A DNA stretch of 50,800 nt from an uncultured Verrucomicrobiae bacterium (GCA_963788655.1 CAWBHS010000014.1:1-50800); one strand, 5' to 3'. Numbered from the stretch's first letter, positions 35,609 through 48,519 are shown. The notes: generated from the sequence alone by a model not told the origin. Program-made: numbers and translations.

Positions 35609-36208
35609 CTACTTCGGTGGTTCCAAGAGCAGGAATTCCGCGCGGCGGTTCTTCGCCCACGCGGCCGGAGTATGCCCGGGGTCGGCGGGGCGGTCCTCGC
35701 CGTAACTGATGGTGTCGATCATCTGATAGTTGACGCCCAAGCGGACGAGATATTCACGCGCAGAAAGTGCCCGGCGTTCCCCCAAGGCCCGGTTGTATTC
35801 TTCGGTGCCCCGTTCATCGCAATTGCCCTCGACGCGGAGAGCCTTGCCGGGATAATTCTTCATCATATTGGCCACGTGCTCGATCTTCGGCACTTCGCTG
35901 GGGCGAATGCTGGACTTGTCGAAGTCGAAATACACGGTGTCCGCCGTGAAAGGTTGTTCCGCGGCGGGAGTCCACTGGTCCAGCGGCAGATTGCTCGCGG
36001 CGATACCCGTTTCGCTCATCGCCCCTTCATTCACTCCGGGACCCCCAGTCAACGGACCGGTGTTCAACTCCGAGTTCATGTCACTGATCGGGGGAGGGGT
36101 GGACCCGGGGATGTTCGTGAGGCGTTCGGGGTGTTTCTTGCAGCCAACGACACTGGTGGAAATGAGCACGACAACCGCCAGCCAACTCAAGGAAATGATT
36201 TGTTTCAT
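35609..36208 (-). CDS. pal: Peptidoglycan-associated lipoprotein (OmpA C-terminal domain)
   Basis: Lipobox VVGC, VYFDFDKS, EGNCDERGTEEYNRALGERRA, ISYGEDRP and NRRAEF. Confidence 0.93.
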   Translation of the reverse strand: MKQIISLSWLAVVVLISTSVVGCKKHPERLTNIPGSTPPPISDMNSELNTGPLTGGPGVNEGAMSETGIAASNLPLDQWTPAAEQPFTADTVYFDFDKSSIRPSEVPKIEHVANMMKNYPGKALRVEGNCDERGTEEYNRALGERRALSAREYLVRLGVNYQMIDTISYGEDRPADPGHTPAAWAKNRRAEFLLLEPPK

Positions 36209-36232
36209 GGTTAATAGTTTTTTCGAGTTCAC

Positions 36233-37420
36233 TTATCGCGCCCAACTCGGCTGCGAATTGCTCTGCAAAAATCGACCGATAGTTTTATGTTCTTTAGTGG
36301 GCACGTCAAGCAAAGACAATGATTTCGCGTGATCCGGGCCTTGGCAGTAAATAACTGCCCGTGAATTGGCCGCCCACGTGGGATCTTCCCCGGCCACCAC
36401 CACCTGCGCGATTCCCCCGCTGGCCTTCACCAGGCAGATATTAAAGTCCCGCATTTGCGTGGTGAAAATGATCCACTTCCCATCCGGCGACCAGTCCGGT
36501 TCGGTGGCATTGGGCACGCCCGTGGTGGGGATGCGTTTCATCGGACCGCCGCTGGCCGAGACCACAAACAGGCTCGCCGGCCCGCGCACTCGGGAAGTAA
36601 AGCAGATGGACGTACCGTCAGGGGACCAACAGGGTGAAGACTCTGCCTCGCGGGTCTTGGTCAACTGCCGCAAGTTGCTGCCATCCCGGTTGGCCACATA
36701 CAGGTCCGGACTACCGCCCTTGCTGAGGATCATTGCCACCTGCCGGCCGTCCGGCGAAACCGCCGGGCTCATGCTCGATCCGCCGTACGGGGTAATGCAG
36801 CGGCGCGTGCCGGAATTCAGATCATGGTAGAAAACATTCAGGCGTCCCAGTTTGTAGGAATCGTAGTACAACGCGGAGGTTCCCGCCCAAGCGGGCGCCG
36901 CCGCAATCGAGCTGTCTTGCGTGACGGACTGGGCGTTTTGACCGTCATAGTCCGAAATATAAATCTCACTTTTGCCGGCACCGGTCTCGACGCGGAAGGC
37001 AATCTTGGTTTGAGCAATACCGGGTTTGCCGGTGAGTTCCTTGGCAATCTCATCGGCCAGCGCGTGGGTTTGGGCTCGGATCGTCCCGCCATTGTAAGCT
37101 TTGGCCAGGCGCTGTTGCTGGTTGAATTTCTCGAGGACGCGCCCTTCCACGTGCCCTTGATTACTGCCCGTGATCAGGAACTTGGCTTCGGCAGCGCTGA
37201 CATTGACGATGCCCATGAACAGTAGATCGTTCTTCAAGACACCGTCCGCTTCGCCCGTGAAGCCGGAGATGTTCACCGGAATCGGTTTCAAAAAACCATC
37301 GACCGTCAGACTTCGACTGATATCGATTTGGGTTGAGGAGGCGGCTTGAACCGCGCCGGCAAACGCGATTCCAACCGTGATCAGGGCGACGGCAATGAAG
37401 GCAACAGGTTTCAATTTCAT
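36233..37420 (-). CDS. tolB: TolB beta-propeller protein
   Basis: Signal peptide, TKIAF, IYISDYDG and PD40 repeats (SPAVSPDG, SPCWSPDG, PDWSPDG). Confidence 0.9.
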   Translation of the reverse strand: MKLKPVAFIAVALITVGIAFAGAVQAASSTQIDISRSLTVDGFLKPIPVNISGFTGEADGVLKNDLLFMGIVNVSAAEAKFLITGSNQGHVEGRVLEKFNQQQRLAKAYNGGTIRAQTHALADEIAKELTGKPGIAQTKIAFRVETGAGKSEIYISDYDGQNAQSVTQDSSIAAAPAWAGTSALYYDSYKLGRLNVFYHDLNSGTRRCITPYGGSSMSPAVSPDGRQVAMILSKGGSPDLYVANRDGSNLRQLTKTREAESSPCWSPDGTSICFTSRVRGPASLFVVSASGGPMKRIPTTGVPNATEPDWSPDGKWIIFTTQMRDFNICLVKASGGIAQVVVAGEDPTWAANSRAVIYCQGPDHAKSLSLLDVPTKEHKTIGRFLQSNSQPSWAR

Positions 37421-38268
37421 CCAACCAGACTTTTTGCTTTGAGGTTAAAATTAATGGTGAACGTGCGGGAGGCTTCGGTAGCCCCTTTGGGAAAGGGCGG
37501 TAACTTTTTGACTTTGTCGAGGGCTTTTTGCACGGAGCGGTCCAACAACGGATTCCCCGACCGCCGGGAAATGTGCGCAGAAATCACGGTGCCGTCGCGG
37601 GCAATGACGATCGTGGCGGTGGCGGTCGAGTCTTCGTCCTCGAAATCGCCGGACACCACCCAGGCATCTTCGTACACTGACCGCACGAACTGGGCGTAAT
37701 TTGCATAAGCGGCGCCTCCGGGACCGTAGGTCTTCACGACCGTGCCCTGTTCAAAACCTTCCCGGAGCTTGCCAACGATTTTGTCGAATTGTTTGGCGGC
37801 TTGCTGTTGGGCTTTTTTGCGGGTTTTCTCGGCGGCTCGCTCGCGCGCTGCATTCACGTCCTCGTGGCGGCGGACAACCGGTGTTATTTCAATTTTGGGT
37901 ATCTCCACCTTTTTCGGTTCGGGACGCGGCTTGGGCGGAGCCTTTACCGTTTGCTTAACCGTTTCTTTCGGAGGCGGAGTCACCTTCTTTGGTTCCACCT
38001 TTTTCGGTTTCGGTTGGGGTGGTTTAGGCTGAGGCGGAGGTTCGACTTGCTTCTTGACCTGCTCGTCCGTCTTGGGGGCGGTCGGATCGCCACCGCCACC
38101 GGACATGGCTTGGTCGATGAGAATGCTGGGGATTACGTTCAGGCGCTCCGTTAGGACAGGCCGTTTTTTGTCAGAGGACAAAAACGCCGTGCCGGTGACC
38201 AGCAGCAGCACCAACACGGTGTGCATGCCGGCCGAGGCCAATAGACATTTTTTTTGCATCCGACTCAT
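37417..38268 (-). CDS. tolA: TolA/TonB-family energy transducer
   Basis: N-terminal TM with a SxxxH motif, Pro/Lys-rich linker and C-terminal IARDGTV..SGNPLLDRSV..LPPFP. Lies between tolR and tolB. Confidence 0.8.
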   Translation of the reverse strand: MSRMQKKCLLASAGMHTVLVLLLVTGTAFLSSDKKRPVLTERLNVIPSILIDQAMSGGGGDPTAPKTDEQVKKQVEPPPQPKPPQPKPKKVEPKKVTPPPKETVKQTVKAPPKPRPEPKKVEIPKIEITPVVRRHEDVNAARERAAEKTRKKAQQQAAKQFDKIVGKLREGFEQGTVVKTYGPGGAAYANYAQFVRSVYEDAWVVSGDFEDEDSTATATIVIARDGTVISAHISRRSGNPLLDRSVQKALDKVKKLPPFPKGATEASRTFTINFNLKAKSLVG

Positions 38269-38271
38269 AAA

Positions 38272-38691
38272 TCAGCGACGTGGCGGTCGCGTGCGCAAGG
38301 ACACATTCTCGACGCCCGCCTGCTCCAACCGGTCGAAGATGGCCGCCACGTATTTGTAGGGTGCATTCTCGTCCCCCCGAATGTCCACAATAAGATTTGG
38401 ATTTTGCCGGGCCTCCGCCACGAGCCCTTGCGTGATTTGGTCCAGATTCAAGTGGCGGCCGTTTATCATGTAATCGCCCTGCGGATTGACTTCCACCGTG
38501 CGAATGTCTTGCCGTTCAATTTTGCGCGTGTCCGGTTTACCGCCTTCCGGCAATTGCAGGTTCATTCCCTGCTCCAACAGCGGGGTGGTGATCACGAAAA
38601 TGATCAACAACACAAACGCCAAGTCCAGCAGCGGCGTGAGATTGATCTCTGCCAGCGTGACCAAGTGACTGCGTTGGGAAAATCGGCGCAT
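38272..38691 (-). CDS. tolR: TolR/ExbD
   Basis: AEINLTPLLDLAFVLLIIFVITTP and IRGDENAPY. Confidence 0.88.
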   Translation of the reverse strand: MRRFSQRSHLVTLAEINLTPLLDLAFVLLIIFVITTPLLEQGMNLQLPEGGKPDTRKIERQDIRTVEVNPQGDYMINGRHLNLDQITQGLVAEARQNPNLIVDIRGDENAPYKYVAAIFDRLEQAGVENVSLRTRPPRR

Positions 38692-38706
38692 GGGAGGCTA
38701 GAGAAT

Positions 38707-38808
38707 GGATGCCGGATGCCGGATACTGGATACCGGATAGTGTCCCGCAGACCATCCCGGTTGACATCCGGTATCCATCCGGTATCCGGTATCCGGCATC
38801 TGGTATCC
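38707..38808. repeat. Inverted heptamer tandem arrays (GGATRCC)n ... (GGYATCC)n
   Basis: GGATGCC GGATGCC GGATACT GGATACC GGATA, then the complementary atcc ggtatcc ggtatcc ggcatct ggtatcc. Can fold as a long hairpin. Confidence 0.8.
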
Positions 38809-38837
38809 CTCTTCTAGCATCGTGTCTTGCATTCCTT

Positions 38838-39569
38838 TCATTCGACGTCTTCGTCCTTCAAATACTCCGTCTCCATCCGGGAGACCAGCTCTTGCGCGAA
38901 GTTGTCCAGTTCGACGGTCATCGTGCGCAAGGTATGCACCAGCCAATTATAGCCAAACATGGAGGGGATGGCGACCAGCAGGCCGGCCACAGTGGTAATC
39001 AACGCGGCAGCCACGCCCGGCGCCATGGTTGCCAGGTCGGCATGTCCGCCCTTCGCCGCCGCCATGGCCACGTAGCTGAACGCGCTCATCACGCCCCACA
39101 CGGTGCCGAGCAAGCCCAGGAACGGCGCGCCGCTGACCGCAATGGCCAGCAGGATCAGCCCGGATTCGAGCTTGAGCGATTGCTGGGCGACGGCATTTTC
39201 CAACGTGCGTTTCACGTGTTCCATGGTTTTCAAGGACACGTATTTCTTCCGTTCTTCGTCGCCGCCGGGACGCAAGCGGGCGTCTATTTCCCGACAACCT
39301 TCCTGGTACACCACGTACAACGGGCAATCCGGCACTTGAATGCGCCGGTTATAGACATCGAGCACGTGACGCTGGGTGCGAAACTCGGCGTCGAACAAGT
39401 GATTCAACCGCTTGCCGCGGCGCATTTGCATGGCTTTGGAGGCCATCACCGACCACGCAAAAATGGAGAAGATCACCAAAATGATGATGATCGCCTTGCC
39501 TTCGGGGGTGGCCTGATCCCACACAAAGGGCAAATCAGCCATGGCCAACATGTACAACGGAACGTGCAT
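38838..39569 (-). CDS. tolQ: TolQ/ExbB/MotA proton channel
   Basis: APFLGLLGTVWGVM and APGVAAALITTVAGLLVAIPS..YN. Confidence 0.9.
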   Translation of the reverse strand: MHVPLYMLAMADLPFVWDQATPEGKAIIIILVIFSIFAWSVMASKAMQMRRGKRLNHLFDAEFRTQRHVLDVYNRRIQVPDCPLYVVYQEGCREIDARLRPGGDEERKKYVSLKTMEHVKRTLENAVAQQSLKLESGLILLAIAVSGAPFLGLLGTVWGVMSAFSYVAMAAAKGGHADLATMAPGVAAALITTVAGLLVAIPSMFGYNWLVHTLRTMTVELDNFAQELVSRMETEYLKDEDVE

Positions 39570-39817: not shown

Positions 39818-41704
39818 TTACCAGAAGTATAGGTATAAACCCAACGTCAGCAACACGACCACCCAACCCCAAAACTTGGCCAGCCCGGAGGACTCCAGAC
39901 TGATGGTCGTGTTCTTGGGCAATACGAACGGCTGGCCCAGCGGCTTGAGCATGGTGATCACACCCATGACCAGCAGCACACAACCAAACGTGAGTGCCAT
40001 CCGATCCAGGAACGCCCAGGAGGTCAAGACCACCGCCAACAAGCCATAGACCAACGGGGTTAAAATCAATCCCACCACGCCGCAGACCGGCGGGGCCTTG
40101 GGCGCGAGCAGACCAAACACAAACACCGCCAGGATGCCCGGGCTGATGTACCCTTGAAATTCCTGAATATAATTGAAGATGCCACCCAGTTTCGGATTAC
40201 CGAGTTGCGGCGCGATGATGCAGCCGATGGCCAAACATACGCCCACACCCATCCGGCCCACCGAAACCAAATTCGTTTGGGACGCGCGCGGATTGAGGTA
40301 TTTGCGGTAAATGTCCATCGTGAAAATCGTCGAAGCCGAGTTCAGCATCGAGGCCAGCGAACTGACGACCGCTCCCATAATCGCCGCGAGCATGAAACCC
40401 CGCAATCCGGGCGGTATCAGCTTCTTGATCAGCAACGCAAACGCCGAATCGTGTTTGTAACCGATGAACGGCTTTTGCACTTCGATGGACACACCTTGCT
40501 CGTTCTTCGCGGCAATGGCTTTGAGCGCGATTTTGTTGGCATCGTCCAGCGACACATCCTGCGGCACCGGAATGCCCGCTACGGCGCAATTGTAAGCCAC
40601 GATTTCCCGGGCGGTCTGCTCGTTGACTTCGGCAAAGTTGCCGGTGAACGCGAACGCCACCTTGGCTTCGGCCGGATTGGCTTTCACGGACGCGAACAGT
40701 TCGAGCCCGGGACGATTGTCCACCGCCGCTTCCTGCTGCATGTCCTTCGAGAACAAATTGAAGGCGATGATGCCGGGCACCACGATGATGAAAGGAACGA
40801 TCAACTTCAGTGCCGCCGCAAACACAACTCCCTTCTGCCCCTCCGCCAGCGACTTGGATCCCAGTGTTCGTTGGGTGATGTACTGGTTCAATCCCCAATA
40901 ATAAAAATTGGGAATCCACAAGCCGATCACCAGCGCCGTCCAAGGAATGGCCGGATCGGTGGCCGGTAGGACCATGTGCAGTTTGGCCGAATTGAGGGCC
41001 GTGAATTTGTGCAGCGCGCTGGCCGTGTCCGGAATGTTTGCCGCCGCGAGAGCCGGGACGGTGTCCGCCGTCGCAGCACCGAGCGCTTGCATGGCAAAAT
41101 AGACGACGACCGCGCCGCCGGCGATCAACGCCGAACCTTGGAGCAAGTCCGCCCAGGCGCAGGCTTTCAAGCCACCTGCCGCCACGTAAATACCGGCGAT
41201 GATACCGATGCTCCACGACAAGGGCCCCAGTTCATACCCGAACAACGTCCGCAACGTCAGCGCCCCGGAATAGACCACTGCGGGAAACGTCACAAAGGTG
41301 TAAATCAGCACCATGAACAAGCCCATCAGCATGCGCGCATAGTGATTATACCGGTATTCCATGTATTCCGGGATCGTGTAAATGCCGGCTCGCAAGAACA
41401 GCGGCAGGAAGACAAACGCCACCACCACCAGGGTGATGGCCGCCATCCATTCGTAACTGGCGATGGCCAACCCCAGCCAGTTGGCGGCGCTGCCGGACAT
41501 GCCGATGAATTGTTCGGTCGAGATGTTGGCAGCGATCAGCGAAAATCCAATCAGCCACCAACTCAGTCCGCGCCCGGCCAGGAAGTAGGATTCACTGTCC
41601 TTTTCGTGGCGGCTCTTCAAGGTGCCAATGGCCACCACGGCCACGATGAAACCGAAAAAGATGATTAAATCGATGGGCAATAATTTGAACGTGTCAGTGC
41701 TCAT
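39818..41704 (-). CDS. Sodium:solute symporter (SSS/SGLT-like, probably sugar)
   Basis: YFLAGRGLSWWLIGFSLIAANISTEQFIGMSG, YTIPEYMEYRY, YYWGLNQYITQRTL and SSLASMLNSASTIFTMDIY. Confidence 0.93.
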   Translation of the reverse strand: MSTDTFKLLPIDLIIFFGFIVAVVAIGTLKSRHEKDSESYFLAGRGLSWWLIGFSLIAANISTEQFIGMSGSAANWLGLAIASYEWMAAITLVVVAFVFLPLFLRAGIYTIPEYMEYRYNHYARMLMGLFMVLIYTFVTFPAVVYSGALTLRTLFGYELGPLSWSIGIIAGIYVAAGGLKACAWADLLQGSALIAGGAVVVYFAMQALGAATADTVPALAAANIPDTASALHKFTALNSAKLHMVLPATDPAIPWTALVIGLWIPNFYYWGLNQYITQRTLGSKSLAEGQKGVVFAAALKLIVPFIIVVPGIIAFNLFSKDMQQEAAVDNRPGLELFASVKANPAEAKVAFAFTGNFAEVNEQTAREIVAYNCAVAGIPVPQDVSLDDANKIALKAIAAKNEQGVSIEVQKPFIGYKHDSAFALLIKKLIPPGLRGFMLAAIMGAVVSSLASMLNSASTIFTMDIYRKYLNPRASQTNLVSVGRMGVGVCLAIGCIIAPQLGNPKLGGIFNYIQEFQGYISPGILAVFVFGLLAPKAPPVCGVVGLILTPLVYGLLAVVLTSWAFLDRMALTFGCVLLVMGVITMLKPLGQPFVLPKNTTISLESSGLAKFWGWVVVLLTLGLYLYFW

Positions 41705-42095
41705 AATTCATTACGTGCTTCCTGGATCAGGGCCTTCGTCGCCGTTGCGCAAAGCCAACTCGCCACCGGGAACCGCCCCATGGTCCGACCTGCTTGTCCG
41801 CCGGATGCCACCGGGAGACGCATGCAATCCTGCCGAGTTGCCCGCTCTGCACAAAATGATTCGGGATGGTGTAGTGGATTTTGCAGGGCCTTGTCAAACC
41901 CTAGCCCGGATATTTCATAAGCCCTTCGGATTTTTGGGGCGAGCGCGGATTTGGGGAGCAGAATTCGGCAACAAGGAGGTGTTTTTGCCGCACGATGGAC
42001 AATACGGACGCTAAAACCTTAAAAATTGAAAATTAGGGCCGGTTTTGTACACACCTCTTCCGTAGGGCTGCCTCATCAAAAGTCGTTGCTTGGAT

Positions 42096-43532
42096 TTAAC
42101 CCGCCGGGGACGACAGCCGCATCAGCCGCCGGTGGCAAAGGGCAAAGAGCTCTGGCAGTGGGAAGGCGCTGCTCATTTGCACATAGACGCGCCGCACGCT
42201 CACTTGCACTTGGGCGGCGATCTTCAACAGTTTCAACCGCAGACTTCCCGCCGTCGCTCGCTCCAACTCCGTTCCCTTCAGCCCCAGCGTGCGCAACCGC
42301 TCCAACAACAGGTAAGCGAACATCGCCTCCCACAGCCGAAACTGATTGCTGGCCAGATGGTGCGTGCTCATCCGGTCGGCCTGCAAATCCAACACCTGCT
42401 GCTTGAGTTTGTTTTCCATATCCCCCCGCGCGCAATAGAGTTCTTCGTAGAGCCGCGCCGGACAGAAGCGCGTCTTGTCCCGTTCCTTTTTAAACCCGTT
42501 GGCCGGTAAATTGGTCACGATGAAGCGCGGATTTTCCCCCTCCCGCATCACCTCCGCCTTGCCAATGACCCGGCGCTCCCGACTCCAACTCTTGCGTGTC
42601 CGATACCGAAACTCGGTGAACTCCCGCACGCGCTCGGCCCCGCTCAGACAGTGGCGCGCCCGCGCCTGGGCCAGCGCCGGCCCCAGCTTCTCAATCAGCA
42701 CCGGGTTCTTGGCCAAGCCCAGGCAGTAGTACACCTCTCGTTGACTCTCACACCAGGCCATGATCTCCTCCCGGCCAAACCCGCTGTCCCCGCGAATGAT
42801 GATCCGCGCCTTGCGGCACCGTTGCCGGATGGCCGCCACGATTTTCTCCAGTGCGGGCACCGCCCCATGCGCCGCCTCGTGCTCGGCGGTGCGCAGTTGC
42901 GCCCACAACGGGAAGTCCCCGACAAACGCGTAGAGCGGCAGATAACAATAATCGTCATAGTAGGCGTTGAAATGCCGCCCCTCCTGCAAGCCGTGGAGCC
43001 GATGCCCCATCGCATCCAAATCCACCACCACCTCCGTGGCGTGTTTGGGCAGGCAACGCGTCCCCATTTTCAGCAGGCACGCTTCGATCTGGGCGGGGTT
43101 GTGGGGCAATTTGTGGCAACGCGTCTCCTTGTTATTCGACAACTCCAGGCGGTTGAGGGTCGCGGGACCCGCCAGCGCGATGCCCCGATGTTGGGGCAAC
43201 ACCCGCTGTTCCCCCAGCGGATCAGTCTTGCCGCAGGCCGCGGCCAGCAGCGGGTCCAAGCGCAAGCGTTGATGATCATTGAGGTCCTCGTAGCCCAGCG
43301 CCACGCCGAAGAGGCGCTGACACAACAACTCCGGCACTGAATGGTCCACCCAGATCGGATTGCGCCCGTCGGCAAAGCAACGGGCCAGTTCGGCGCTCAA
43401 CCCGAGGCTCCGATCGACCTGGCGCAGGAGCAACGCGCCGGCGTCGGTGGAGAGGGTGCCGCCAGAGAAATCGGCTTGCACGCGCCGCGGTCCCAAATCC
43501 TCAAACAGAAAGCTTTGACTTGCGTTAGCCAT
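42096..43532 (-). CDS. IS1380-family DDE transposase, intact
   Basis: FSGGTLSTDAGALLL, GYEDLNDH..LRLDP, DLDA..HGLQEG..FNAYY..CYLPL, IRGDSGF, NPRFIVTNL and YCARGDMEN. Confidence 0.95.
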   Translation of the reverse strand: MANASQSFLFEDLGPRRVQADFSGGTLSTDAGALLLRQVDRSLGLSAELARCFADGRNPIWVDHSVPELLCQRLFGVALGYEDLNDHQRLRLDPLLAAACGKTDPLGEQRVLPQHRGIALAGPATLNRLELSNNKETRCHKLPHNPAQIEACLLKMGTRCLPKHATEVVVDLDAMGHRLHGLQEGRHFNAYYDDYCYLPLYAFVGDFPLWAQLRTAEHEAAHGAVPALEKIVAAIRQRCRKARIIIRGDSGFGREEIMAWCESQREVYYCLGLAKNPVLIEKLGPALAQARARHCLSGAERVREFTEFRYRTRKSWSRERRVIGKAEVMREGENPRFIVTNLPANGFKKERDKTRFCPARLYEELYCARGDMENKLKQQVLDLQADRMSTHHLASNQFRLWEAMFAYLLLERLRTLGLKGTELERATAGSLRLKLLKIAAQVQVSVRRVYVQMSSAFPLPELFALCHRRLMRLSSPAG

Positions 43533-43554
43533 GTATCTAGTCTATAGGCTAGAT

Positions 43555-43773
43555 ATGGAAAATCCAGTGAAATATTCACTCAAAGTGCAGGCCATTCGCC
43601 CCAAAGGCCAAACGCCCAAACGGTATGTCTATTTTCCCATTCCCCTGGCCGCGGCCATTGGGCTGCAACCCGGCGAAGCGGTGCAGTGGGAGTTGCTCGA
43701 CCGGGGCGAATTGCATCTGGTCAGAAAACAGGTTCCAGCTCCCAAGGCCCGGCAACGCTCCCGAAAGGATTAA
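43555..43773 (+). CDS. Small AbrB/MazE/SpoVT-fold DNA-binding protein inside the IS
   Basis: 72 aa, KVQ..YVYFPIPLAAAIGLQPGEAVQWELLDRGELHLVR, fitting the swapped-hairpin pattern (xxPxxlxxxlgLxxGdxvxw). Basic tail. Confidence 0.7.
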   Translation: MENPVKYSLKVQAIRPKGQTPKRYVYFPIPLAAAIGLQPGEAVQWELLDRGELHLVRKQVPAPKARQRSRKD

Positions 43774-43883
43774 CACACTGTCGGTGGCGGTTGCTTAAAC
43801 CGAACGGGGTGGAAAACCGCGTCAACAGCGGGTGGAATCGCGTTTTGACCCTCAATTATGAACGCCCTTATGAAATATCCAGG

Positions 43884-44320
43884 CTAGCGTGCTGCCGGCA
43901 TCTTGCCGGCAGTTTGGAACGGACGCTGCGGAGTTAAGCCCCACGGTTGGTGTTTGGCGCGGGCTGCCCCGTTCGTTTCTGCCGGCGGGACGCCAGCAGC
44001 ACGTTGCTCCAGCGTGCTGCCGGCATCTTGCCGGCAGACCGAACGGAAGAAGGCGCCACGAGTTGCCAAGCAACTGCGAGCGCACCAAACGCCGCGGCAG
44101 TTGGGATCGGCTCGGAGGTTCTCGTGCGTTCGTTTCTGCCGGCGGGACGCCGGCAGCACGTTGCTCCAGCGTGCTGCCGGCATCTTGCCGGCAGACCGAA
44201 CGGAAGAAGACGCCACGAATGGCCCAGCAACGTCGAGCGCACCGAACGCCTCGGAGTTGGGATCGGTTCGGAGGTTCTCGTGCGTTCGTTTTTGCCCGCG
44301 GGACGCCGGCAGCACGTTGC
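43884..44320. repeat. Tandem array of three REP-like inverted doublets, family B (BIME-like)
   Basis: AGCGTGCTGCCGGCATCTTGCCGGCAG at 43886, 44011 and 44168, each paired with a downstream near-complement CTGCCGGCGGGACGCCGGCAGCACGTT. Periods are 125 and 157 bp. Confidence 0.9.
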
Positions 44321-44511
44321 TTCAGCTAGTTGACGGCAGTTCGAAACGGTCGTTGCAACGTTTAGCCCCGGTTAATATTCGGTACGCCGTTGCAGCCACC
44401 AGCGCCCCCAGCGAACGGGCTCTCGGACCACGCGCGTTTCTTGACTTTGTTCCGGGCAGTCTTCATTTTTCACAACCCGCCGGCGCGAACCGACGGGAAC
44501 CAGAGAACGTT

Positions 44512-47383
44512 ATGGCAACATCACACAATCAATTTAACTCGCTGAAATCTTTCGATTTGGGAAACGGGCAACCGGGCCATCTCTATTCACTGCCGGCCTT
44601 GGAGGAGGCCGGTTTGGGCAAAATTTCCCGCCTGCCGGTTACCATTCGCATCGTGTTGGAATCGGTCCTGCGCAATTTTGACGGCCAGAAAATTACCGCT
44701 GACAACATCCAGGCACTTGCCGGCTGGCAGCCGAAAGCGCCGCGCACGGCGGAAATCCCCTTCGTGGTGGCCCGCATCGTCCTGCAGGATTTCACCGGGG
44801 TGCCGCTGCTGGTGGACCTGGCGGCCATGCGTTCAGCCGTCCAACGCACCGGCAAGAATCCCCAGTTGATCGAACCGCTGGTGCCGGTGGACCTGGTGGT
44901 GGATCATTCCGTGCAAGTTGATTTTGCCGGTTCGCCCCAAGCCTTTGCCCGCAATTTGGACATGGAGTTTCGCCGCAATCGCGAACGCTACCAACTGCTC
45001 AAGTGGGGCATGCAAGCGTTCGAAACCTTCAAAGTCGTGCCGCCCGGCATCGGCATCGTCCACCAGGTCAATCTCGAATACCTCGCCAAGGGCGTGCTCT
45101 CCACCCAATCCACCGTCAACGACCAACCCGCGACCATCTACTATCCGGACACGCTGGTCGGCACTGATTCGCACACCACGATGATCAACGGCCTGGGCAT
45201 TGTCGGCTGGGGCGTGGGCGGCATCGAAGCCGAAGCCGGCATGCTGGGGCAACCGGTTTATTTTCTCACGCCGGATGTCGTGGGCGTGCATCTCACCGGA
45301 TCGTTGAGCGAAGGCGTCACCGCCACCGACCTGGCGCTCACCGTCACGCAAATGCTGCGGCAGGCGAAAGTCGTCGGCAAGTTCGTCGAATTCTTCGGCC
45401 CCGGCGCGGCGGCGCTTGCCGGTGGTGGATCGCGCCACCATCGCCAACATGGCGCCCGAATACGGCGCCACGATGGGCTTCTTCCCGATCGACGAGGAGT
45501 GCGTGAACTACCTGCGCGCCACCGGCCGCAGTGAAGAATTGTGCCGCACCTACGAAAATTATTATCGCGCGCAGGGAATGTGGGGCATCCCGCAAAAAAG
45601 GCGAGATGGATTATTCGGTGGATTTGGAACTCGACCTGGCCACCGTGGTGCCCAGCGTCGCCGGCCCCAAGCGGCCGCAAGACCGGATCGAATTGCCCAA
45701 CTTGAAAACCGAATTCTTGAGCGCGCTAAAGCGGCCGATCACGGAAAGCGGGTTCGGCAAACAGGAAGCCGATCTGGCAGCTCAGTGTCCACGTAGCGAG
45801 CAATGGCCGTCCGCCCGAGGAAGCGAATCCATCCTACGGCGACCGCCCCGTGCCGACTTCCAGCGAATCGGAAATGCGCGATCAACATCCGACGCCGGAT
45901 CGGCCGCAGGAAATTCCGGGCTCGGCATTCCCCAATTTTGAAACCGACGTGCATCACGGCAGTGTGGTGATTGCCGCCATCACGAGCTGCACGAACACGT
46001 CCAATCCCAGCGTGATGCTGGCGGCCGGTCTTGCTCGCGAAGAAGGCGGTCGAGCGCGGCCTGCGGGTGAACCCGGCGGTCAAAGCGTCGCTGGCGCCCG
46101 GTTCGCGCGTGGTCACGGATTATTTGAACAAAACCGGGTTGCAGCCGTACCTCGACCAACTCGGCTTCAACCTGGTGGGCTACGGCTGCACGACCTGCAT
46201 CGGCAATTCCGGCCCGCTGGCTCCGGCGCTGGAACGAAGCCATCATCCAGCACGACCTGGTGGTGGCTTCGGTGTTGTCCGGCAACCGCAACTTCGAGGC
46301 GCGCGTTCATCAAAACATCAAGGCCAACTTCCTGATGTCTCCGCCGCTGGTGGTCGCCTTTGCGCTGGCCGGCCGCGTGGACATCGACCTGACCCAGGAA
46401 CCGCTGGGGCAGGGGAGGACGGGCAGCCGGTTTACCTGCGCGACATCTGGCCGACGCTCGCGGAAATCCGCGGCGCAACTGCAGTCGGCATTGCAGCCGG
46501 AAGTCTTTCGGCAACTTTACCAGGATTTTGCGGAACAGAATCCGAAATGGAACGAGATTCCCGCCAGCACCGGCAGCGTCTTTGCCTGGGACGCCAAGAG
46601 CACCTACATCCAGGAACCGCCGTTCTTCGAGCACTTTTCGTCTGGAACCGGGCAGCCATGGAAGAAATTCACGGCGCGCGCGCGCTGGGAATTTTTGGTG
46701 ACTCGCGTCACGACCGACCACATTTCACCCGCCGGCAGCATCAAGAAGAGTTCGCCCGCTGGCACATACCTGCGTCGAAAACGGCGTGGCCGTCGAAGAG
46801 TTCAACAGCTACGGTTCGCGCCGCGGCAATGACCGCGTGATGACGCGCGGCACGTTTGCCAATGTGCGCATCAAGAATCTGATGGTTCCCGGCGTGGAAG
46901 GCGGCGTGACGAAGTTCCAGCCCGACGGCGAAACGATGAGCATTTACGACGCGGCCATGAAATACGCGGCCAACCAACGCCGCTGGTGGTGATCGCCGGC
47001 CAGGAATACGGCACCGGCAGTTCGCGCGACTGGGCGGCCAAAGGCACGCTGCTGCTCGGCGTGAAGGCGGTGGTGGCGCAAAGTTACGAACGCATTCACC
47101 GCTCGAACCTGGTGGGCATGGGCGTGTTGCCGCTGCAATTCAAAGAAGACACCAACGCCCAAACGCTCAAGCTGGATGGCACGGAGACTTACGATGTCAT
47201 CGGCGTGAACGCAAAACCTGAAGCCGCAGCAGGACCTGACCTTGCGCGTCACGCGCGCCGATGGCAAAACCGAAGACGTTCAACGTGACCTGCCGCATTG
47301 ATACGCCCGTCGAGATCGAATACTACCAACACGGCGGCATCCTGCCCTACGTGCTGCGGCAGTTGCTGGCGGGAGCCGCTTGA
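44512..47383 (+). CDS. acnA: Aconitate hydratase A (many frameshifts)
   Basis: [99 protein letters not shown] and [12 protein letters not shown] (TGA 47381-47383). Confidence 0.95.
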
Positions 47384-47414: not shown

Positions 47415-47774
47415 ATGAATTCGACTGCGCTGACGCTGAACGACCTGGAATCTGACTCGCTCTTCGACACCTTGCTTGAACACCTGAAGTTCTCCGAGGT
47501 GGTTGCGGAGTGGAGTCGGTGCCGGCAAAAACTGACCCAATGGGAGGACGCGCATTTGCTGGTGGATAACACGTACAATCGCCTTTTCCAGGAAGTTGCT
47601 ACTCGCCTGCCGGCAGGCCGCATCCAGGAGGAATTACAGGCCGCCATTCGCGTCCGTGCGCGGCAAATGAAACTTGCCAGAAAGCAGCCCCCGTCCCATC
47701 CCGCCCACCGCTTGAGCCGTTTCGCACGAAACACGGCGGAGGAGCCCGCAATTGTCGAATCGCCTTGCGGTTGA
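47415..47774 (+). CDS. Hypothetical protein
   Basis: ATG-started 119-aa ORF between acnA and the TA pair. No motif recognised. Confidence 0.4.
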   Translation: MNSTALTLNDLESDSLFDTLLEHLKFSEVVAEWSRCRQKLTQWEDAHLLVDNTYNRLFQEVATRLPAGRIQEELQAAIRVRARQMKLARKQPPSHPAHRLSRFARNTAEEPAIVESPCG

Positions 47775-47830
47775 AACTTGCGTCTATTTCTGCTCTTGAA
47801 TCGCACTGTGAGCGTGGTAAATGGAAACGT

Positions 47831-48067
47831 ATGTCAAAAGCGGAATTAAAATTGGAGTTGCCGGTCGAGGAGATTGAGTTTCTCGAAGCCTATGCGAATC
47901 AACACCGCACCCCCGTCTCCGACGTGGTGGCGGGCTTGGTGAAGGGGCTACACCGTCCGCCACGACGTGAGATTCATCCAGAGGTTCAGAAGATCACCGG
48001 CATCATTCCTCCAGAAGTTGACGTGAAAGAAGCCCACCTCCAACACATCCTTGAAAAGCACAAATGA
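47831..48067 (+). CDS. Antitoxin, DUF6364-like (RHH)
   Basis: KLELP..LEAYA..VSDVV..IHPEVQKITGII..HILEKHK. ATGA overlap with the PIN gene. Confidence 0.75.
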   Translation: MSKAELKLELPVEEIEFLEAYANQHRTPVSDVVAGLVKGLHRPPRREIHPEVQKITGIIPPEVDVKEAHLQHILEKHK

Positions 48068-48519
48068 AGATCGTGTTGGACTTGAATGTCTTGCTGGACG
48101 TGATCCAGAACCGTCCGCCGCATTACTTGGATTCTGCTGATGTTTTAAGCCGTGTCAGAACGGGAGAAATAGACGCGATCCTGCCAAGCCACGGCGTCAC
48201 AACGCTGTGGTACATCCTTGCCAAAAGCGCGAATCCTGCGACCGCGAACCAGACGGTGGAATGGATGTTAAGCCACTTTGAAATCGGCGGTGCGGATAAA
48301 GCCACCTTTCAAAATGCCCGCCAGTTGCCGGTAAACGATTTTGAAGACGCGGTTGTGGCCAGCGTGGCCCGGAGCGCAAATTGCGACTACATCGTCACCC
48401 TGAATGTGTCAGACTTTGCCGGTTCGCCGGTGCCTGCGGTCACTCCGGCGGACTTTTTGAAGTTGTTCGCCGCGGCGGGTCCAAGTTCAGCCGGAAAGGC
48501 GCCCGGCCAAAGCAAATAA
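48064..48519 (+). CDS. vapC: PIN-domain toxin
   Basis: IVLDLNVLLD, TTLWY, DFEDAV and DYIVTLNVSDF..VTPADF. Confidence 0.88.
   Translation: MKIVLDLNVLLDVIQNRPPHYLDSADVLSRVRTGEIDAILPSHGVTTLWYILAKSANPATANQTVEWMLSHFEIGGADKATFQNARQLPVNDFEDAVVASVARSANCDYIVTLNVSDFAGSPVPAVTPADFLKLFAAAGPSSAGKAPGQSK

Follow-up and report, generated by a model that had tools for sequence, protein, structure and literature searches.

What an additional gene is doing inside an insertion sequence (IS), head to head with the transposase and separated from it by little more than a palindrome, is the question raised by an IS1380-family element in a 50,800-nucleotide stretch of DNA from an uncultured Verrucomicrobiae bacterium (GCA_963788655.1, CAWBHS010000014.1:1-50800; the whole stretch is referred to below as the window). 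The element spans window positions 41905-43883 (1,979 bp). The canonical IS1380 layout is a single open reading frame (ORF) with the transposase start approximately 85-115 bp from the terminal inverted repeat (IR); here a second conserved gene lies within the IRs. The initial annotation of this DNA had described the element, its IRs, its intact transposase and the divergent 72-aa ORF with coordinates that all proved exact, and its 22-bp gap between the two ATGs and 18/20 palindrome were likewise reproduced. We propose that this is a multi-copy IS1380 element carrying a regulatory cassette, in which a small predicted AbrB-fold protein probably binds an 18-bp palindrome and represses both the transposase and itself. 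The three central features are as follows.

42096-43532, minus strand: IS1380-family DDE transposase, 478 aa, predicted from its geometry to be leaderless; identified by NF033539 and PF13701, with near-invariant residues D171, D173, D249 and E373.
43536-43553, no strand: palindromic 18-bp site with core TAG-N8-CTA, the predicted operator; the symmetry runs over 43534-43555.
43555-43773, plus strand: 72-aa AbrB/MraZ-type swapped-hairpin protein with a basic tail, a predicted repressor.

Homologues of the small gene were collected from GTDB genomes, from 401 genomes of the phylum (37 positive) and from metagenomes (the best 80 of 455). These gave 133 loci, reduced to 122 by removal of 11 redundant copies. 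A transposase adjoins the small gene in 107 of the 122. Divergent partners belong to the IS1380 (59 loci), IS1182-like (21), ISNCY/IS5-like (16, one labelled by hand) and IS630 (1) families, and the small gene stands upstream of an IS701-like transposase in nine loci and of an IS66 transposase in one. One further locus lies ahead of a plasmid Rep gene. In the remaining 14, several of which are truncated or at a contig end, no partner was recognised. Families were assigned by best match; scores lie on both sides of the cut-off for IS1182-like and IS701-like enzymes and below it for ISNCY-like ones. The small gene is found inside the terminal repeats of IS1380, IS1182-like and ISNCY/IS5-like elements. 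The expectation that homologues would stand head to head with IS1380 transposases was thus borne out, but not as an exclusive arrangement; on these family assignments the cassette is not IS1380-specific but common to at least four transposase families.

The palindrome accompanies the gene. Positions 43535-43554 are self-complementary at 18 of 20 positions, or 20 of 22 when extended, and the consensus of the site across loci is GCTAGTCTATAGRCTAGM. Equally good 20-mer palindromes occur 468 times in the 8.96-Mb host genome (50 of them at a GC content of 40% or less); the palindrome alone is therefore not rare, and its significance rests on conservation. TAG-N8-CTA is present within 200 nt upstream in 111 of the 130 loci with enough flank, against a mean of 4.9 and a maximum of 13 in shuffles. 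In the de-duplicated set it is kept in 103 of 122 loci: 58/59 with an IS1380 partner, as the initial annotation had anticipated, 18/21 with IS1182-like, 16/16 with ISNCY-like, 9/9 with IS701-like, 0/3 with other partners and 2/14 with none. The IS1182-like loci that retain it mostly have leaders of 14-39 nt, and the IS701-like loci have no divergent transposase. Control IS1380 loci that lack the gene (26, from 15 other genomes of the phylum sample) display the canonical single-ORF layout, and none contains the site. In a non-circular rescoring of 149 distinct upstream regions, in which the mirrored positions 5 and 14 were ignored, 116 regions held the site (shuffle mean 12.8), and the pair at positions 5/14 was G-C in 110, C-G in three, T-A in two and T-C in one. 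Five of the six departures from G-C are symmetric and come from three lineages, against 25% in shuffles. Positions 5 and 14 are free positions of a -10 box, and we take these symmetric changes as suggestive, not strong, evidence for recognition of the site. Below the threshold, L048 and L049 are also symmetric at these positions; they share a loop sequence and differ in site, and no simple protein-to-site code at 5/14 was found.

In seven hand-picked element pairs, the 51-residue core of the small protein is 78-90% identical while the transposases give no significant BLASTP alignment. The gene-carrying IS1380 transposases form one clade (23-row tree, support 0.92). The small-protein tree, by contrast, mixes families. 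It comprises 112 rows, having omitted the 11 redundant copies, three short or broken rows and seven with no nearby in-frame ATG, and it implies 7-8 label changes per family; the number of family swaps is not established by it, because the well-supported branches force just two per family.

The small gene itself is genuine and under purifying selection, judging from comparison with 46 relatives that share its layout. The 42 pairs for which dN/dS could be computed have a median of 0.053, and no stop interrupts the frame in any of the 46, against stops in 46 and 18 of them for the other two plus-strand frames; the proposed ORF thus passes the test of constraint. An overlapping ORF at 43686-43937 was rejected as a gene, its frame having stops in 25 of 46 relatives. 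Relatives of the protein fall into at least 2,962 clusters at 90% identity and 228 at 50%, nearly all unnamed. Searches of the protein against Pfam, NCBIfam, PADLOC and PDB sequences gave nothing significant. Among relatives, 32 of 86 weakly match PF04014 (MazE_antitoxin) at E values up to 0.1 (best 1.1e-4), and in the Atlas the nearest named cluster is AbrB/MazE at 0.88, which is a lead only. An AlphaFold2 model (pLDDT 82) has the order beta-beta-alpha-beta-beta, and the first 13 Foldseek matches listed for it and its top 10 VIA rows are of AbrB, MazE, SpoVT and VapB types, including pSSVx and pSSVi proteins. A natural homologue with two tandem domains matches MraZ (1n0e) with Z 9.8 and a root-mean-square deviation of 4.8 over 106 aligned residues, the next row scoring 6.5. 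The swapped-hairpin fold is therefore a well-supported prediction, and the AbrB label given to the ORF at the outset agrees with it, resting on family members and the model with no Pfam or NCBIfam match for the window protein. Two-domain versions, which lend indirect support to the predicted homodimer or oligomer, were seen at L037, L038, P0121, P0122 and P0134; L038 retains both the palindrome and a divergent IS1182-like transposase. In keeping with the initial annotation, no toxin partner accompanies the gene: only 93 bp separate its stop from the IR, into which no toxin ORF fits, and in 49 IS1380 loci the distance from stop to IR end is 45-132 nt, leaving no room for a toxin gene. The adjacent, co-transcribed toxin gene that characterises type II toxin-antitoxin systems (MazEF, VapBC, PrlF-YhaV) is thus missing.

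In other respects the window element is a regular member of its family. The transposase is intact, scoring 342 bits against the NF033539 IS1380 model (cut-off 180) and E 7e-128 against PF13701, and this DDE enzyme is bounded by short IRs (17 bp, matching at 16 of 17 positions) and by a target duplication within the 4-5 bp typical of the family, CTAG lying just outside both ends.

41901-41904, no strand: target-site duplication CTAG on the transposase-3' side; other copies are flanked by CTAG or CTAA.
41905-41921, plus strand: 17-bp terminal inverted repeat at the transposase-3' end, conserved in relatives.
43867-43883, minus strand: 17-bp terminal inverted repeat at the small-gene end, identified by the IR match.
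43884-43887, no strand: target-site duplication CTAG, identified from the flanks.

The element is present at several sites with different flanks, as expected of a mobile sequence, and a relative occurs in ten copies in genome G404. The host genome contains three full copies of 99.2-100% identity plus one partial copy, a copy number that rests on four matches in the element's own genome. The target duplication is CTAG at copies C14 and C87 and CTAA/CTAG at C85, and the partial copy on C115 has lost its start codon and carries indels, which could be assembly errors. Relative to C14, 5 of 7 differences in C85 and 13 of 16 in C87 are synonymous; in this genome (G000) the differences bunch in synonymous patches at 42824-42861, 43119-43158 and 43212-43272, a pattern expected from mixed strains or from exchange with a related element by recombination. 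The closest named relatives of the element are Verrucomicrobiota. An Rfam search of 41700-44500 gave no match, and no conserved outward promoter was seen by eye at the transposase-3' end in the loci listed.

The position of the palindrome relative to predicted promoters indicates how binding could act. Neither ATG is preceded by a Shine-Dalgarno sequence, and the TAGACT box previously noticed 6 nt before the transposase ATG was confirmed at -12 to -7. The boxes assigned to the two genes are:

43515-43520, plus strand: predicted -35 box TTGACT of the small gene, within transposase codons 5-6; in 44 of 47 clade members TAGTCT is preceded, at 17 nt, by TTG(A/C)NN.
43538-43543, plus strand: predicted -10 box TAGTCT of the small gene, a box that the stricter consensus scan missed.
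43539-43544, minus strand: predicted -10 box TAGACT of the transposase, at -12 to -7 of its ATG; the 6-nt spacing is kept in 52 of 57 IS1380 and 9 of 16 ISNCY-like loci.
43561-43566, minus strand: predicted -35 box of the transposase, TGGATT here, within small-gene codons 3-4 and with a 16-nt spacer; TTGATT, TTGCTT or TTGACT in 29 of 47 relatives.

A strict promoter scan found no site, because it required 4/6 matches in each box. The Gln6 codon that falls in the -35 box of the small gene is CAA in 43 of 43 cases, against 363 of 873 (42%) Gln codons elsewhere. The two predicted -10 boxes face each other, the predicted starts, at 43532 (minus strand) and about 43550 (plus strand), are 18 bp apart, and we infer that the promoters overlap at the palindrome. 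Both genes had been thought leaderless; by geometry this would hold for the transposase, while transcription of the small gene from TTGACT-17-TAGTCT would start about 4-5 nt before its ATG. Two RNA runs (X1 and X2) contained just 5% of the words, and their contigs derive from diverged relatives with no bearing on expression.

We propose the following mechanism. Two overlapping sigma70-type promoters would fire from the palindrome, giving a leaderless transcript for the transposase and a short-leader transcript for the small gene. The small protein would then dimerise into a swapped-hairpin barrel, bind TAG-N8-CTA symmetrically and block RNA polymerase in both directions, so that a negative-feedback loop caps the levels of the transposase and of the protein itself. 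Such a loop would allow transposase to be made in a burst when the element reaches a new cell and would silence it afterwards. As a diffusible protein, it could also repress other copies in trans, together with elements of other families that have the same site.

Several observations weigh against repression through this site. The window copy has Arg23 where leucine is nearly invariant; the C87 copy shares this arginine, while copy C85 and the family have Leu23. Taken singly, none of the single-chain fold matches reaches significance (Foldseek E of 0.26 or more; VIA Z up to 4.6), and Foldseek on the tandem-homologue model put helicase barrels first. Locus counts are not independent, because the loci were chosen by likeness to the window protein and are mutually related, and the control IS1380 transposases are just 33-55% identical. 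At the chosen score 33 of the 149 upstream regions are siteless, including those of a distant stand-alone subgroup, and several low-scoring sites are asymmetric at positions 5/14 (L053, L177, L185 and L205). Part of the symmetry of the palindrome, moreover, needs no protein, since its left half has the pattern of a bidirectional promoter.

This last point leads to the chief alternative, in which the palindrome is no more than a compact promoter for both directions and the small protein serves the element in some other way, for instance by assisting the transposase or attaching to the ends. The facing -10 boxes are arranged as in the commonest class of bidirectional promoter, for which Warman et al. 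(10.1101/2020.01.31.928960) list start sites 18 bp apart, and 23 bp, the distance from one ATG to the other, is also among the classes listed there. The left half is thus explicable without a protein, and the likely frameshift fusion in IS701-like elements (see below) hints at a role in transposition. Such a promoter leaves unexplained the right half of the palindrome, the constancy of the N8 spacing, the G/C positions, which are conserved against the -10 consensus, and the survival of the site in other layouts: it persists in all nine IS701-like loci and alongside differing leaders and register. One near-identical protein also serves unrelated transposases with unrelated ends and targets, which a shared DNA site fits better than a shared protein partner. 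We therefore regard a promoter with no operator function as unlikely. Binding of the palindrome by an activator, or by a direction switch favouring one promoter, is quite improbable in turn. Some AbrB-fold proteins do activate, SpoVT and pSSVx C68 among them, both of which are fold matches of the small protein. In L019-L022 the site falls between the -35 and -10 boxes of the small-gene promoter, within its 17-bp spacer; in L008 it lies upstream of the -35 box. In the window clade, however, both -10 boxes and the predicted start of the small gene lie under the site, and a site overlapping a -10 box usually blocks polymerase; the site also covers the predicted -10 box in IS701-like loci.

Two further explanations appear very unlikely. 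The small protein might be an orphan antitoxin or anti-addiction passenger whose palindrome serves only its own autoregulation, given that the fold is common to MazE, VapB and PrlF, that some homologues are automatically annotated as PrlF-like, and that toxin-antitoxin pairs are described as riding in Tn3 elements (10.1101/848275). No toxin fits any of the elements examined, PADLOC gave no match, and the site is held at a fixed 6 nt from the transposase start codon, all of which count against this explanation. Type II antitoxins carry their toxin-binding region at the C-terminal tail, which is short, basic and variable in this family. Hardly more credible is that a host regulator uses the site, that a hairpin or cruciform forms at it, or that the protein steers insertion to CTAG. 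The stretch does fold as RNA (-11.4 kcal/mol), and both half-sites are CTAG, which is the target of the element and is depleted approximately 20-fold in the host genome. By the predicted start sites, however, neither mRNA would hold the whole palindrome. A weight matrix built from 59 distinct sites gives 29.4 for each of the four IS copies and no more than 14.3 for any other site in the host genome; as only the IS copies score highly, there is no host regulon for the motif, and a host-regulator site was rejected. A CTAG-targeting role was rejected because most of the IS1380 controls, which have no small gene, likewise end at YTAR; IS1182-like carriers, for their part, display duplications other than CTAG. 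Repression of both genes from the palindrome thus remains our preferred explanation.

The origin of the cassette can be approached through a short motif next to the small gene.

43773-43781, no strand: conserved ACA-N3-TGT motif whose distance to the IR is constant (109-112 bp from the IR end in 42 of 49 IS1380 loci) and does not depend on where the small gene stops.

The same motif occurs in the first transposase codons of canonical IS1380s (in 14 of the 26 control loci and 7 of their 15 genomes), so the insertion point likely lay there. The extra gene and palindrome of the window element, together approximately 240 bp, lie between this subterminal motif and the transposase start; the cassette seems to have entered at the transposase start, with the motif staying where it was. 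A different arrangement is seen in IS701-like elements: there the transposase frame lies at -1 relative to the small ORF, and the two overlap at a stretch of 7-9 A. An in-frame A_AAA_AAN is present in 8 of 9 IS701-like loci but in only 5 of 96 divergent ones. Of 20 longer database matches, five are in-frame fusions to DDE_5. A -1 frameshift fusion of the AbrB-fold ORF to the IS701-like transposase is therefore likely, judged by these reading frames, although homopolymer errors could lie behind these observations, and some of the loci have stop-start overlaps that allow translational coupling instead. The loci with likely slippage into an IS701_3-type transposase are L036, L041, L043-L046, L050 and L051. 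The window element is itself divergent, and the -1 overlap is confined to its IS701-like relatives. In some IS701-like loci, a second CTAG-N9-CTAG site was noticed by eye nearer the element end.

On a wider scale, it is possible, though we hold it only tentatively, that one AbrB-fold repressor and its palindromic operator constitute a plug-in unit that has been passed among at least four DDE families and is served by a shared pool across elements. Because protein and site are nearly identical across families, all carriers in one cell would share one repressor pool. The same tentative reading would make the carriers of one cell a cross-family copy-number sensor and immunity group; the IS1182-like carriers of genome G404 have a symmetrically changed site and a diverged protein, such as an escape variant would show, and in IS701-like elements the domain would have become a frameshift-fused transposase N-terminus.

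Individual genomes illustrate how carriers are distributed. G404 contains ten IS1380 carriers, five ISNCY-like carriers and three variant-site carriers, two of which were matched to IS1182-like transposases. At L016 (G404:C30), the small gene of one carrier, whose DDE transposase is of a different kind, is split by the insertion of an IS1380 carrier. At L053, L184 and L186-L188, the small gene is found upstream of IS66-type transposase ORFs, with palindromes that are partly degenerate. A family member at L048/L212 (G085:C24) lies directly ahead of a Rep3 plasmid initiator and has a symmetric TAT-N8-ATA site; from this locus, the module may also control plasmid replication genes. The distant stand-alone subgroup (G313, with L191-L200, G379 and G397) has neither transposase nor palindrome, and G313 holds ten similar small-gene copies, several directly after CARDB-domain genes. 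Outside the phylum the gene is rarer: of 301 genomes from the phylum that includes G401, 3 were positive, a count that includes the seed and one weak, probably unrelated match. A plasmid collection queried with either subgroup gave no small-protein homologue, though 681 of its records match the transposase, and viral contigs gave no small-protein homologue.

The surroundings of the window element were also inspected. It is inserted at the edge of a REP-like array (43886-44340) of approximately 157-bp units with GC-rich palindromes, the core 17-mer of which occurs 135 times in the genome; the array has no Rfam match. An aconitase-like gene, named by eye, is spread over several frames at 43903-47288 (ORFs ending at 45534, 45796, 46335, 46832, 46992 and 47288), which suggests assembly indel errors or a pseudogene. 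Further on, at 47765-48519, DUF6364 (PF19891) and PIN-domain (PF13470) genes likely form a VapBC-type toxin-antitoxin locus; the pair is 4 kb from the IS and outside the element. To the left lie a Tol-Pal-like cluster (35609-39569, by eye) and a sodium:solute symporter-like gene (39818-41704).

Work on how simple ISs limit their own activity has barely begun to cover accessory proteins, with Arc in IS605, and the cassette would add a second fold, in DDE elements. Its candidate operator is defined to the base and comes with natural variants of protein and site, making binding and cross-repression testable with small reagents. If a shared pool does exist, unrelated IS families would regulate one another, which would alter models of transposon load and transfer bursts. 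The proposal also supplies a hypothesis of function for thousands of 'hypothetical protein' clusters, and some IS701-like transposases may lack an annotated N-terminus.

Compared with known systems, the window element resembles the IS1380 members ISEcp1 and ISPme1 in its NF033539 transposase, IRs starting CC, 4-bp duplication and multiple copies (PMC9330008). The portions of that source dealing with transporter ISs and IS1380 gene capture do not mention such a regulator. Unlike canonical IS1380 elements, it has the approximately 240 bp of extra gene and palindrome that is absent from the 26 control loci. The small protein resembles AbrB, MazE, SpoVT and MraZ (1yfb, 1ub4, 2w1t and 1n0e) as well as pSSVx C68 (3o27) and pSSVi C56 (7xi6) in its predicted unit and in having a palindromic site at its own promoter, and its natural tandem versions are predicted to fold like MraZ. 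It differs from these relatives in lacking a Pfam or NCBIfam match and a toxin partner and in standing almost always beside a transposase. In IS1 (InsA/InsAB) and IS3 (OrfA/OrfAB), an upstream ORF for a DNA-binding protein runs into the catalytic ORF, which is in the -1 frame, at an A-rich slippery run, and the upstream protein is of helix-turn-helix or zinc-finger type and binds the ends. The IS701-like relatives match this layout, with an AbrB fold and an internal palindrome in place of those features, while the window element has no such fusion. Element proteins that restrain transposase expression, as proposed here, include TnpR at the res site of Tn3, Orf121 of IS91 and CvkR of CAST, and TnpR acts from a site between divergent genes, as here (10.1101/848275 and the discussion of the Arc preprint cited below). 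Unlike the small protein, TnpR is a recombinase, CvkR is of MerR type and the orf121 frame overlaps tnpA; none is described in the passages concerned as moving with its site between IS families. Our literature search, with most subscription journals and ISfinder outside its reach, found no AbrB-fold regulator of an IS. The closest precedent is Arc, which binds and represses an intergenic region of IS605-family elements with two predicted divergent promoters (Moon et al., bioRxiv 10.64898/2026.09.24.754181, 2026); the main text of that preprint does not mention AbrB, MazE, IS1380 or IS1182. By analogy with Arc, an IS-encoded repressor acting on a divergent promoter is not without precedent, and the window element has the corresponding parts: a small accessory gene for a predicted DNA-binding protein within the IS ends, and a conserved site over two predicted divergent promoters, that of the transposase included. 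Whereas Arc is a ribbon-helix-helix protein of HUH/TnpB elements, the protein described here is modelled as beta-beta-alpha-beta-beta with AbrB-type matches, giving a predicted AbrB/MraZ fold, and it accompanies DDE elements of at least four families that share a palindrome.

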